A stretch of 64,000 nt of DNA from Eledone cirrhosa (Eukaryota): positions 6,696,001 through 6,760,000 of the forward strand of contig OZ024754.1 in assembly GCA_964016885.1 (NCBI GenBank), written 5' to 3'. Both the position numbers and the translations under genes were made by a program. This document shows, one piece after another, positions 11,838 through 55,840 of this stretch; the first letter of the stretch is position 1; each line of letters begins with the position of its first letter. A model generated the notes under the pieces. It did no database searches, had not been told where the DNA came from, and was given only the letters and a program-made list of their open reading frames with translations.

Positions 11838-11893
11838 ACTGCTATATATATTTCGATGATAGCCATTGAATGGCTATGACCTCATCAGGCAGT
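11838..11893 (-). ncRNA. Minimal type I hammerhead ribozyme, family E, in (TA)n-flanked island 11793-11907
   Basis: Minus: ACUGC-CUGAUGA-GGU-C-AUAGCCAU-UCA-AUGGCUAU-C-AUC-GAAA-UAUAUA-UA-GCAGU. Confidence 0.85.
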
Positions 11894-13679
11894 TAGTCAG
11901 TTCTTAGATATATATATATATATACAGGTTTCAAAAATGCAATATAAATATATATATATATATACACACAGGTTTCAAAAATGCAATATAAATATATATA
12001 TATATATATATATATATATATATATATAGTAATAATAATAAATTTGAAGACTAAAATCCAAAGAGGGCTCGATAAGGATAAATATATATCAAATATATAT
12101 ATATATATATATATATATATATACAGGGTTCAAAAATGCAATATAAATATATATATATAAATATATATATATAAATATATACACATATATATATATATAC
12201 ACACACAGGTTTCAAAAATGCAAATGTAAATAAACTTGGCTGGGCTTCATGTTACCAGAATATTCCTAGAATATATATATAATCATAAATGAAGTTTTTA
12301 TATTTGGCGCTTGTATTTAATGTAGCTTGTTACTGGTGCTGTTGTTGTTAATGATGATGATGGTGGTGGTGGTGGTGGTGGTGGTGGTGGTGGTGGTGGT
12401 GGTGGTGGTGGTGGTGGTGGTAATTATGGTGGTAAATCATGTTGTCGTCACTGATGCAGTTTAACCTCTTTGATACTAAAAAAAAACCACATGTAAAAGC
12501 CTCTGCTTCTATGACAATATTTTATTTTCAAGTGTTTGTTTGTTTGTTTGTGTGTGTGGTCTGTGTGGTGTGTGGTCTCTGTGTGTGTGTGTGTGTGTGT
12601 GTATGCGTGTGCGTGTGTGTGTGTGTGTGTGTGTGGTGTGTGTGGTGTGTGTGTGTGTGTATATATATATATATTATAGATATATTGTATGTATATATAT
12701 ATATATTATAGATATATTGTGTATATATATACATATATATATTATAGATATATTGTGTGTATATTATATATATATATATATATTATAGATATAGTATATA
12801 TATATATACATATATATATTATAGATATAGTGTATATATATATATACATATATATATTATAGATATATTGTGTGTGTATATATATATATATATTATAGAT
12901 ATATATATATTATAGATATATTGTATATATATATATATATTATAGATATATTGTGTATATATATATATATTATAGATATATTGTGTATATATATATATAT
13001 TATAGATATATTGTGTATATATATATATATATATATATTGTGTATATATATATATATATATATATATATATTGTGTATATATATATATATATATATATAT
13101 ATATATGTAATAGATATGTGTATATATATATATATATATATATATATATATATGTAATAGATATGTGTATATATATATATATATATATATATGTAATAGA
13201 TATGTGTATATATATATATATATATATATATATATATATATATATATAATAGATATGTGTATATATATATAAACACCTTCCGTTATAATTATCCAGAAGA
13301 AAACTGGTCGTCAAGTTCCAAACACCAACTCAATAATTAGAACATTATTTTACAAATTATTGATTATTTCCAAAATGATTTGGAACTGTCTTTGATCAAC
13401 TCTATGGTAACGAGATGGTGAACACCCTTAATCCAATGTGATGAGGTCAACCTACGGTCAAAGGTAACATTCCAGCCGTGGCCACCCCGTTTTTTAATAC
13501 TAAGAAGTCTAAGTATTTTACCTATATCGGACAACAGTGAATTGTGTAAAGGAAATTTAACTGTTATTTCTAGATAGTCAAGTGACCATGTAAAGTCTCT
13601 CTCTCTCTCTCTCTCTCTCTCTCTCTCTCTCGTTGACTCGTAGTAATGACTGGTATTGATGTTACAGCTGGTAATATTT

Positions 13680-16420
13680 ATGTTGCTGCTGTTGGTGGTG
13701 GTGGTGGTGTTGGTGGTGGTGTTGGTGGTGGTGTTGGTGGTGGTGGTGTTGGTGTTGGTGTTGGTGGTGGTGTTGGTGGTGTTGCTGCTGTTGTTGTTGG
13801 TGGTGGTGTTGCTGCTGTTGCTGCTGTTGTTGATGGTGGTGGTGTTGCTGCTGTTGCTGCTGTTGTTGGTGGTGGTGGTGTTGCTGCTGTTGCTGCTGTT
13901 GTTGGTGGTGGTGGTGTTGCTGCTGTTGCTGCTGTTGTTGTTGGTGGTGGTGTTGCTGCTGGTGGTGTTGGCGGTGGTGGTGTTGCTGCTGTTGGTGGTG
14001 TTGCTGTTGGTGGTGGTGTTGCTGCTGTTGCTGGTGCTGCTGTTGGTGGTGCTGCTGTTGGTGGTGGTGTTGCTGTTGGTGGTGGTGTTGCTGCTGGTGG
14101 TGCTACTGTTGGTGGTGGTGTTGCTGCTGTTGGTGGTGTTGCTGTTGGTGGTGTTGCTGCTGTTGCTGGTGTTGCTGTTGTTGCTGGTGTTGCTGTTGGT
14201 GGTGCTGCTGTTGGTGGTGGTGTTGCTGTTGGTGGTGGTGTTGCTGCTGGTGGTGTTGGCGGTGGTGGTGTTGCTGCTGTTGGTGGTGTTGCTGTTGGTG
14301 GTGGTGTTGCTGCTGTTGGTGTGTTGCTGTTGGTGGTGGTGTTGCTGCTGTTGGTGGTGGTGTTGCTGCTGTTGCTGGTGCTGCTGTTGGTGGTGGTGTT
14401 GCTGTTGGTGGTGGTGTTGCTGCTGTTGGTGGTGGTGTTGTTGCTGTTGCTGGTGCTGCTGTTGGTGGTGGTGTTGCTGCTGTTGCTGGTGCTGCTGTTG
14501 GTGGTGTTGCTGTTGTTGTTGCTGCTGTTGTTGCTGTTGCTGATGTTACTGATATTGTGGTTGTTATTGTTGTTGATGTTGCTGTTAGTGTTTCTATTGC
14601 TGTTGTTGTTGCTGCTGCAGTAGTTGCTGCTGCAGTAGTTGCTGTTGTTGCTGTTGTTGTTGCTGTTGTTGCTGCTGCAGTAGTTGCTGTTGTTGCTGCA
14701 GCAGTTGTATTGTCTTTGATGTTGCTGCTGCTGCTGCTGCTGCTATAGCTTCTGTTGTTGTTGTTGTTGTTACTGATATTACTGTTTTGACATTTACTTC
14801 CGTGTTGTCATTGTTGCTGCTTCTGCTGATGGTGGTGGAGAGGGTGGTGGTGGTGGTGGAGAGGGTGGTGGTGGGAGATGGTGGTGGTGGTGGTGGTGGT
14901 GGCGGTGGAGAGGGTGGTGGTGGGAGATGGTGGTGGTGGCGGTGGAGAGGGTGACGGTGGTGGTGGTGGTGATGATGATGATGATGATGATGGTGTGGTG
15001 GTTGTGATGGTGGTGGTGGTGGTGGTGGTGGTGGTGGGGAGATGGTGGTGGTGGTGGTGGTGGTGGTGGTGGGGAGATGGTGGTGGTGGTGGTGGTGGTG
15101 GTGGTGGTGGTGGGGAGATGGGGGGGTGATGGTGGTAGTGACGGTGGTGGCTGTGGAGAGGGTGATGGTGGTGGTGGATGTGTTGGCGGTGGTGGTAGGG
15201 TTGGGGTGGCGGTAGGGGTGGGTGTGTGGGTGGGTGGGGGGTATTGATGGTGGTGGTATGATAGTGTTAGTGGCGGTGATGATGATTATGACGATGAAAA
15301 TGATAATGGTGATGATGATGGTGAAGTCGAGGCTATTTATATTGGCTTGGCTCTAAGTGGCGTTTGTCGAGTGTCCAGTCCAACCCAGTCTATTAACATA
15401 TGGGGCATGGTGTGGGGGGGGGGGCATGGTGTGGTGTGGCGTTGTGTGGAGTGGTTTGGAGTGGTGTGATAGGGAGTGGTGTGGTGGAGAGTGGTGTAGT
15501 GTGGTGGGTAGTGGTGTGGTAGATAGTGATGTGGTGGGGAGTGGAATGGTGGGAGTGGTGTGGTGGGGGGTGGGGGAGGGGGCGGTAGAGATGGTTGGGG
15601 GGGGGGGTAGGGAGGGGGGGGGTGTTGTGTGGTTGGGAGGGGGGATGGGGGCATGGTGTGATGTCGCGTTGTGTGGAGTGGTTTGGAGTGGTGTGGTGTA
15701 GTATGGTAGTGTTTGGTGGGTGGAGATGTGGTGGGGTGTAGTGTTGTGTGGTGGGGTGGGGTTTTTGAGGGGTGAGGGGTGGTGTGGAGGTGAGGGGGGT
15801 GTGTGGTGTGCAGGTGTGGTGTGTGGGTGGCGTGGAGGTGTGGTGTGTGGGTGTGGGATGCAGGTGGTGTGGAGGTGTGGGGTGTGGGGTGTGGGTGATG
15901 TGGAGGTGTGGGGTGTGGGGTATGGGTGATGTGGAGGTGTGGGGTATGGGTGGTGTGGAGGTGCGGGGTGTGTGGGGGTGATGTGGGGTGTGGGGGTGAT
16001 GTGGGGTGGTAATGAGATGTTGCCTGCTGGCCTTAATGGTGATAGCGAAGTTATTGGGTGGCGAGCGACGGCAATGGTGTTAGTGATGGTGGGGTGTGGT
16101 GGTGGTGGTGGTGGTGGTAGTACTGAAGAGTCATTGAACACTTATGGACAATAGTGTGGTGTGGGGTGGTTTGGTGTGATGGTAGTGGTAGGTGTAGTGG
16201 TAGGTGTGGTGGTAGGTGTGGTGGTAGGTGTGGTGGTAGGTGTGGTGGTAGGTGTGGGGGTAGTGGTAGGTGTGGGGGTAGTAGTAGGTGTGGTGGTAGT
16301 AGTAGTGGTAGGTGTGGTGGTAGTGGTAGGTGTGGTGGTAGTAGGAGTGGTAGTAGTAGTGGTAGGTGTGGGGGTAGGTATGGGGGTAGGTATGGTGGTA
16401 GGTGTGGTGGTAGTAGTGAT
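13680..16420. repeat. Long (GGT/GCT/GTT)n and G-rich low-complexity tract
   Basis: Visible; source of the poly-Gly/Val ORFs. Confidence 0.9.
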
Positions 16421-54551: not shown

Positions 54552-55251
54552 AATTAGTCCGATTCATTTCTAGATAACTTCTAGAAAATTAGTCCGATTC
54601 ATTTCTAGATAACTTCTAGAAAATTAGTCCGATTCATTTCTAGATAACTTCTAGAAAATTAGTCCGATTGGTTTCTAGATAACTTCTAGAAAATTAGTTC
54701 GATTGGTTTCTAGATAACTTCTAGAAAATTAGTCCGATTCATTTCTAGATAACTTCTAGAAAATTAGTCCGATTCATTTCTAGATAACTTCTAGAAAATT
54801 AGTCCGATTGGTTTCTAGATAACTTCTAGAAAATTAGTCCGATTGGTTTCTAGATAACTTCTAGAAAATTAGTCCGATTCATTTCTAGATAACTTCTAGA
54901 AAATTAGTCCGATTGGTTTCTAGATAACTTCTAGAAAATTAGTCCGATTGGTTTCTAGATAACTTCTAGAAAATTAGTCCGATTGGTTTCTAGATAACTT
55001 CTAGAAAATTAGTCCGATTGGTTTCTAGATAACTTCTAGAAAATTAGTCCGATTGGTTTCTAGATAACTTCTAGAAAATTAGTCCGATTGGTTTCTAGAT
55101 AACTTCTAGAAAATTAGTCCGATTGGTTTCTAGATAACTTCTAGAAAATTAGTCCGATTGGTTTCTAGATAACTTCTAGAAAATTAGTCCGATTGGTTTC
55201 TAGATAACTTCTAGAAAATTAGTCCGATTGGTTTCTAGATAACTTCTAGAA
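54552..55251. repeat. 35-bp tandem array, 20 copies
   Basis: Unit AATTAGTCCGATT(GG/CA)TTTCTAGATAACTTCTAGAA. Confidence 0.95.
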
Positions 55252-55782
55252 GAATCCGAGTTCATTTTTGGTCTCAATTTCATGAAGAATTGAACCAAGC
55301 ACTGCAAGATAAGAAACAATACAACTTTGTGTTTTTTAATATATATATAATGTTTTTTTAATATATATATATATATATATATATATATATATATATATAA
55401 AAATGACATAAGTATGTTTTTAAATGTATATATATATATTTAGGTTTGTTGGTTCACCACTGGATAGAACTGGTCATTCCGTATGGTCAACCTCGATGTA
55501 ATATGGAGAGCACTCAAGGTAATGCAACTCACCCGTCTTCGTTTGTGTAGTTGGTGGTGCGAGTACGGAGTTAATTATTATAAAATAACAGGAGGCTGGA
55601 CTGGTGTAAATCTTTGAAAGGTTTATTATACTATGATCACTTCAATGACCGGGTTCAGTATGAATCCGGTGACATCATCAGGTATTCAAAATATAACAAA
55701 GGAATATAACAGATAAAATCCTCTTGTCTCTGATTTTCAGCCCCATGGATTTTATCTGTTATATTCCTTTGTTATATTTTGA

Positions 55783-55840
55783 ATACCTGATGATGTCACC
55801 GGATTCATACTGAACCCGGTCATTGAAATGATCATAGTAT
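55783..55840 (+). ncRNA. Minimal hammerhead ribozyme, family D (IR 55578-55889)
   Basis: AUAC-CUGAUGA-UGUC-ACCGG-A-UUCA-UAC-UGAA-C-CCGGU-CAUU-GAAA-UGAUCA-UA-GUAU; mirror copy 55628-55685 has GAAG. Confidence 0.8.

Follow-up and report, generated by a model that had tools for sequence, protein, structure and literature searches.

A 64,000-nucleotide (nt) stretch of Eledone cirrhosa DNA (assembly GCA_964016885.1, contig OZ024754.1, positions 6,696,001 to 6,760,000 of the forward strand; hereafter the window) contains several families of type I hammerhead motifs in which a six-base palindrome lies between the conserved GAAA and the UH of the cleavage triplet. These palindromes are probably real and selected, and as judged from the DNA they are best explained by double-hammerhead pairing in RNAs derived from Penelope-like elements (PLEs). 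The analysis establishes, at the level of sequence, a predicted type I fold, covariation of its stems, the palindromes and a characteristic layout of the inserts that carry them. The surrounding DNA is repeat-rich animal DNA, with (TA)n arrays (n = 165), a mariner fragment, fragments resembling long interspersed nuclear elements (LINEs) as well as repeats resembling short interspersed nuclear elements (SINEs), the SINE being one that we take to be octopus-like.

The window was scanned with a descriptor that demands CUGANGA, the base of stem II, GAAA, UH and a stem I of at least 4 bp, and that leaves stem III unconstrained. The scan returns 18 type I matches, against a mean of 0.053 and a maximum of 1 in 150 block-wise dinucleotide shuffles, and every complete motif carries CUGANGA, stem II and a stem I of 4-8 bp. 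A six-base insert between GAAA and UH is present in ten matches (three in family B, two each in E and C, and one each in D, G and H), and all ten inserts are self-complementary; among background GAAA-N6-UH sites without the core, 17 of 182 are palindromic, or 17 of 74 once the outer pair is given. The other eight matches are seven copies of family A, with a stem III of 4 bp and an 8-base loop, and the motif at 21899+ (the sign denotes the strand), with 4 bp and a 5-base loop. Tolerance of one core mismatch adds motif X (33064-, UACGUA) and the D copy at 55681-; five further one-mismatch rows were taken as chance. The family letters are those of an earlier note on this DNA and were assigned by matching hexamers. 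The palindromic motifs and their decayed relatives are as follows.

11838..11893 (-): family E type I hammerhead (11888-); UAUAUA, triplet AUA, C.C at stem II pair 4
19017..19081 (+): second family E hammerhead (19022+); UAUAUA, 78% identity to the first copy
20741..21045 (+): family B insert in (TA)n, with an inverted 3' arm (20741-20883) and a forward arm (20884-21045)
20945..21015 (+): family B hammerhead; CUGAUGA at 20953, GAAA at 20996, UGCGCA at 21000-21005, predicted cut after 21007
30980..31050 (+): second family B hammerhead (30988+), UGCGCA; its forward arm begins at the base equivalent to 20884
34182..34252 (-): third family B hammerhead (34244-), UGCGCA
22312..22403 (-): family G hammerhead (22396-); CAUAUG, triplet GUA, U.U at 10.1/11.1, U.C at pair 4
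29517..29554 (+): family H hammerhead (29521+); CAAUUG, triplet GUU; stem II short, U.U at the base
32346..32594 (unstranded): family C inverted pair, 32402- and 32538+; UAUGUA with G.U, a single fold-back insertion
55628..55840 (unstranded): family D inverted pair, UGAUCA; 55681- has GAAG, 55787+ is intact
32831..32877 (+): C', a decayed copy with UAUGUA followed by UG instead of UH and with mismatches in stems I and II
33009..33071 (-): decayed motif X (33064-); CUCACGA core, UACGUA palindrome, C.C at pair 4

The earlier note had read these motifs as ribozymes with a self-complementary stem III in seven families (B, C, D, E, G, H and L), and this description stands for six of them. The hexamers claimed for B and E are found within complete motifs at all five sites, and those of G, H and the half motif GAAA-CAAUUG-UC (59003-) are likewise in place. 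In family C, UAUGUA holds at 32402- and 32538+ but not at 32831+, where UG replaces UH; in family D, UGAUCA holds at 55787+ but GAAA is altered at 55681-. The reading as type I hammerhead folds is supported by the excess of matches over shuffles and by the covariation of stems I, II and III.

For the covariation analysis, nine motifs (11888-, 19022+, 20953+, 22396-, 32538+, 32831+, 33064-, 34244- and 55787+) were aligned in register; family H, which MAFFT misaligned, was excluded from the pair counts. The predicted structure is paired in 90.7% of 162 cells, and two-sided changes occur at 15 of its 18 pairs, across stems I, II and III. None of 500 shuffles reaches this paired share or covariation score, and controls with slid partners are 28-49% paired. 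Stem III is paired in 36 of 36 cells within the full structure; taken alone, it is paired in 27 of 27 cells with three covarying pairs, and two of five measures do not go beyond the shuffles (27 and 378 of 500). The innermost pair of the palindrome is CG in three rows, UA in three, UG in two and AU in one, and is unbroken in all nine. Since no loop separates its two bases, this pair is impossible within one strand. Its covariation would thus be explained only by pairing between two strands, which provides the strongest support for strand exchange and, at the level of sequence, good evidence for it. The hexamers' permutation ranks were rejected as evidence, as they are high by construction.

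It is very improbable that the palindromes are unselected for RNA pairing and arose as by-products of AT-rich sequence and fold-back insertion, or as DNA-level signals. UAUAUA and UAUGUA are indeed common in the window, and the inverted arm of the insert at 20741 breaks exactly at the palindrome. However, the GC-containing hexamers UGCGCA, UGAUCA, CAUAUG, CAAUUG and UACGUA occupy the same position with respect to an intact core, and the background rate of 9-23% contrasts with ten of ten. A metagenome pattern scan for relatives with coding flanks bears on both sides: 11 of its 25 loci are palindromic, under a pattern that already forces a T-R-Y-R-Y-A hexamer, but none has both stem I and stem II. 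All 25 loci were taken as chance and rejected as hammerhead relatives.

A second regularity lies in stem II. Its pair 4 is unpaired in nine of nine rows and is always pyrimidine-pyrimidine (Y.Y: C.U, C.C or U.C), the flanking pairs covary, and U occupies position 1.7 in eight of the nine aligned rows. Families B, C, D, E and G, together with C' and X, have in common an extended stem II that shows Y.Y at pair 4 and lacks an additional base after A9; weak blastn links join X to B and X to C'. Because of this signature and these links, common ancestry is proposed, and common descent with compensatory change appears likelier than independent invention of the families. The independent recurrence that the earlier note had counted as strong support is therefore not sustained, since these families look homologous.

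The folding of monomers and dimers was compared with ViennaRNA, which takes no account of tertiary contacts. In seven palindromic constructs, the A15.1-U16.1 pairing probability in the monomer is 0.000-0.014, and two active monomers are less favourable than the double-hammerhead fold by 11.2-19.9 kcal/mol. For B, D, G, H and X, the homodimer helix is stronger than any heterodimer helix; for E the homodimer is equalled by pairing with C, and C finds a better partner in X or E than in itself. The tandem pairing predicted earlier is not supported within the window. Close same-family pairs lie on opposite strands, and when an inverted pair is folded as one transcript the probabilities of stem I and stem III are 0.000, with the motif buried in a long hairpin; such pairs were accordingly rejected as double hammerheads in cis. 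The only same-strand palindromic pairs in the window are two B copies 10,035 nt apart and, at a distance of 293 nt, C and the broken C'; neither a second intact same-family copy nearby on the same strand nor head-to-tail repeats of hammerhead units are found there among the palindromic families. With the close pairs inverted, a dimer, if one forms, is to be ascribed to source elements or to pairing in trans.

The insert layout points to the carrier. At 21 of 27 sites both flanks contain (TA)n within 300 nt, compared with 12.9% of 5000 random spots, the sites not being independent of one another. In families A, B, C and D, an insert is made up of a forward arm joined to an inverted one, with a longer 3' tail on one of the two, which is the inverted pseudo-long terminal repeat (pLTR) with a one-sided tail that is used to recognize PLEs. 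An inverted truncated arm with an optional one-sided tail is described for endonuclease-bearing (EN+) PLEs (Craig et al. 2021; PMC3846280). The layout matches these descriptions, and the carriers are probably PLE end-pieces. The EN+ clades Hydra and Neptune, as described by Craig et al. (2021), also have insertion into microsatellites and hammerheads in common with the window inserts; unlike in those clades, no protein-coding part was found in the 150 of 224 open reading frame segments scanned, so no clade is assigned.

Family B was followed in four public runs, either DNA or untyped, which stem from no more than three samples and from two studies; their reads and contigs were compared with the B insert at 80% likeness. 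The matching records number 3867, 4563, 4989 and 5536 per run; a small number of loci are over-represented in the reads from restriction-site-associated DNA, and copies that resemble the insert are favoured by the filter on likeness. Among the 40 variant rows shown (a further 25 lie outside these), 16 fall within the motif, 11 of them at paired sites, four in loop II and one at N7. The pair is kept in nine of the 11 paired-site variants. One pair-breaking exception, 11.1 U to C, may accompany 10.1 A to G, the two being unphased in the records. Transitions keep the pair in nine of ten cases, an outcome open to 30 of 54 positions (P = 0.016), and the conserved core bases, GAAA, the palindrome and UA are untouched by any variant row shown. 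In most joints shown, an inverted arm of variable length is joined to a fixed start at 20884. In two of the three window copies, the forward arms (20884 and 30919) begin at this same base, 69 nt before C3, which suggests a defined RNA 5' end.

These joints also bear on a different carrier. The motifs might belong to non-LTR retrozymes or SINE-like solo pLTRs that have their own tandem or circular RNA cycle and depend on PLE proteins, instead of being truncated ends of full PLEs, with the dimer forming between tandem units elsewhere in the genome; this is possible, though we hold it to be the less probable origin. The fixed start of B with its variable inverted arms is in its favour, as are the fold-backs of family A, all of which turn 5-8 bases before C3, the absence of any coding remnant beside a motif among the 150 of 224 open reading frame (ORF) segments scanned, and the derivation of retrozymes from pLTRs (bioRxiv 10.64898/2026.07.22.740005). 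Against it, the window holds no head-to-tail repeat of a hammerhead unit, and an inverted arm with an optional tail in (TA)n is the signature of EN+ PLEs. Such an origin is a question of the carrier, and dimer cleavage would be compatible with it.

Family A has 14 GAAA-side copies in the window. In its five fold-backs (10350/10357, 30008/30014, 31887/31896, 50051/50057 and 50415/50423) the turning point falls within the 5' strand of stem I, 5-8 bases upstream of C3. In a further copy (63550-63700), the post-cleavage strand and a tail come immediately after an inverted core, with a stem I of at least 14 bp; this layout fits a cDNA snap-back through stem I, priming from a cut RNA end or deletion in a hairpin.

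Under the double-hammerhead reading, the motifs would be type I hammerheads from the pLTRs of several related PLE families, surviving as short inserts in (TA)n, often with an inverted 3' arm head to head with the forward arm. By analogy with published PLE work, two same-family motifs in a source transcript would swap strands, the palindrome together with A15.1 and U16.1 would form a shared 8-bp helix III, stem I would also form between the two copies, and each core would cut its partner after AUA, GUA or GUU. A motif by itself would have no more than a 2-bp stem III, and its cleavage would be poor. Either the second pLTR of a tandem master copy or a separate molecule acting in trans would provide the partner; the inverted copies in the window would not serve and are probably, for the most part, inert fossils.

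The published PLE hammerheads agree with this picture in several respects. The canonical helix III has 1-2 bp with a palindromic loop of 2-4 bases, and small palindromic helices III occur in motifs from D. willistoni, Aedes, Adineta, Marsupenaeus and Saccoglossus (PMC4209133, Fig. S3). The D. willistoni element has the same stem III design (U-AGCU-A-UA); its palindrome is six bases long, its triplet is AUA, and U stands at either end of helix II. Like the window families, the PLEs of PMC4209133 are type I, with a CUGANGA/GAAA core, a palindrome between GAAA and UH and close inverted pairs on opposite strands. Unlike them, the window motifs have a longer stem II (about 16 bp at most), mostly without an extra base after A9, a variable 10.1/11.1 pair (A-U, G-C, G.U or U.U) and the invariant Y.Y at pair 4, a pattern not seen by eye in the 56-row S3 alignment of that paper. 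U10.1-U11.1 and palindromic stems III are reported in PMC3088659, and the link to PLE-type dimeric hammerheads drawn in the earlier note agrees with both papers. The dimer model of minimal PLE hammerheads is summarized in PMC6765202, and the double hammerhead of avocado sunblotch viroid is cited in the PLE and retrozyme papers. The minimal type GAAA-NN-UH (PMC4209133; PMC6765202), to which the motifs at 30721+ and 10090- belong, has the dimer logic and the PLE host in common with the main window families, which differ in keeping 2 bp and a 4-base loop. The non-LTR retrozymes of newt, axolotl, coral and mussel (PMC7229834; bioRxiv 10.64898/2026.07.22.740005) are also type I, with a weak palindromic helix III and short non-coding units, and the U.U at the base of helix II in axolotl Amex2 (PMC7229834) recurs in window motifs. 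Retrozymes, however, have head-to-tail repeats, loop 1-loop 2 contacts and circular RNAs, whereas the window units are dispersed or inverted. PLEs are listed in Octopus vulgaris in PMC13282606, the main text of which does not mention ribozymes or hammerheads, and no hammerhead motifs of this sort in octopus or other cephalopods appear in the literature found, as judged by titles and the beginnings of abstracts.

Several observations weigh against double-hammerhead pairing in PLE-derived RNAs. The rows of the alignment are related (B, E and C each appear twice), so that covariation events are fewer than cells. The energy model fails to separate palindromic motifs from controls: family A gives a monomer pairing of 0.035-0.139 and a dimer gain of 10.0-12.4 kcal/mol, and 21899 a dimer gain of 5.9 kcal/mol. 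The minimum free energy dimer keeps helix III in only three of the seven palindromic constructs. The Rfam hammerhead models give no match at the gathering score, and Rfam runs by E-value yield no hammerhead among the 150 best of 378 rows or in 20890-22440, the output being miRNA-type hairpins and microsatellite noise; these models presumably miss variants with a long stem II. Among the public records of family B, 25 variant rows lie outside those shown, and the variants are unphased. Neither a PLE reverse transcriptase nor GIY-YIG is found by Pfam in the 150 longest of 224 ORF segments of at least 48 aa; absence of both frames is expected for short end-pieces. The Pfam matches otherwise are a mariner helix-turn-helix (HTH), one weak RVT_1 and zinc-finger-like matches in a repeat, and the sole RVT_1 match is presumably LINE-like, judging by its motif. 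Additionally, published PLE dimers cleave weakly (PMC4209133), one of nine Xenopus dimers is active (bioRxiv 10.64898/2026.07.22.740005), and invertebrate hammerheads with a 2-bp stem and a tetraloop cut well as monomers (PMC7229834).

Alternatively, the window motifs might be PLE hammerheads that cut mainly as monomers, with tertiary contacts (perhaps at the stem II mismatch) holding the 2-bp stem III and the dimer serving as a booster. Coral retrozyme monomers cut at about 0.8/min, and Amex2, with a 2-bp stem III, a tetraloop and U.U at the helix II base, shows 22% cleavage as a monomer (PMC7229834); the invariant Y.Y at pair 4 would be a plausible docking site. Nevertheless, Amex2 cut much better as a dimer (PMC7229834), and the innermost palindrome pair covaries unbroken through four pair types, which a monomer loop does not need. 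Predominant monomer cleavage thus appears unlikely. The earlier claim that the palindromes imply dimers gains support from the innermost pair but is too strong in view of the monomer activity of similar stems.

A tertiary contact of U1.7 and preferences among cleavage triplets belong to the general background of hammerheads. Tentatively, and with more doubt than confidence, we propose that the window motifs represent an undescribed PLE hammerhead subtype, in which Y.Y at pair 4 of the extended stem II would replace loop 2 as the docking site, perhaps for U1.7 of the partner strand. The family palindromes might then act as a copy counter, so that tandem master transcripts would be cut, whereas solo pLTR transcripts with a fixed 5' end would stay uncut and be copied whole into (TA)n at very high copy number. 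The pair-4 variant may already be included in Lunse et al. 2017.

The principle of a palindromic stem III, dimer cleavage and a PLE host is already published, and the window motifs are new members. Their value is that of a natural covariation set, with seven palindromes in one 64-kb window and one pair that is impossible in a monomer, and the palindromes offer ready-made constructs for swap-and-rescue experiments. What earlier in vitro constructs of low activity lacked may be the invariant mismatch in stem II. This mismatch at pair 4 and the fixed 5' boundaries stand out as leads to follow.

The remaining hammerhead-related features of the window are the following.

21895..21978 (+): non-minimal hammerhead, stem III of 4 bp with a CCGGU loop; may be the L of the earlier note
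53936..54050 (unstranded): fold-back with GAAA-CCGG-UA on both arms and without CUGANGA; likely the L of the earlier note, unsupported as a hammerhead
29941..30140 (unstranded): family A example, stem III of 4 bp with an 8-base loop around CUAG, no minimal palindrome
30721..30750 (+): minimal-type motif CUGAUGA-A-stem II-GAAA-UG-UU, weak stem I
10059-10094 (-): decayed relative of the 30721+ motif, CA between GAAA and UU
58188..58199 (-): half motif GAAA-CAAUUG-UA, truncated on its upstream side
58992..59003 (-): half motif GAAA-CAAUUG-UC, upstream CUGAUCA, no stem II

The family that departs from the earlier description is L, for which a CCGG stem III was claimed. At 54040+/53946- no CUGANGA lies upstream, and the apparent stem before GAAA is only an arm of the fold-back; if 21899+ was meant, the insert is 11 bases long (CCACCGGUUGG, a 4-bp stem and a 5-base loop) and is not minimal. 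A complete core with NUH is lacking in L, the two half motifs, C', X and 55681-. The reading of CUGAUCA-AC-GAAA at 59003- as a complete motif was rejected, as C8 breaks the 3-8 pair and stem II is absent. The earlier list leaves out family A, UACGUA at 33064-, the CAAUUG half motif at 58199- and four minimal-type GAAA-(CG/CA/UG)-UH sites. Two of these four sites, 30721+ and 10090-, are homologues that belong to the classic minimal PLE type; their UG and CA between GAAA and UU are what CpG decay would make of CG on one strand or the other, and GAAA-CG-UC remnants lie at 22695- and 52163-. The 8-base loop III of family A (34401+, 31896+) is an interrupted palindrome centred on CUAG, which would form 12-14 of 16 bp in a dimer, and the larger family A may therefore also pair in trans.

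Another inverted-arm family lies in (TA)n (11392-11540, 12028-12092, 36006-36254, 58563-58872 and 59008-59147); it has no complete hammerhead in the window, and one copy abuts the half motif at 59003-. A broken mariner-type transposase with HTH_48 and HTH_32 matches occupies 40700-41580. Fragments of non-LTR retrotransposons include a restriction-like endonuclease end at 56550-56990, which we take to be R4/Dong-like, and a weak RVT_1 piece at 59433-59639. The output of the repeat finder is dominated by microsatellites. Minisatellites at 38066-40040, 44340-45750 and 54560-55260 have units of 52, about 103 and about 32 nt, and the 52-mer appears to be derived from a LINE-like piece similar to 47340-47650. 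Finally, a repeat family of about 95% identity (4450-4980, 16920-17150, 49550-49960 and 53180-53740) carries a weak C2H2 zinc-finger match on the minus strand.

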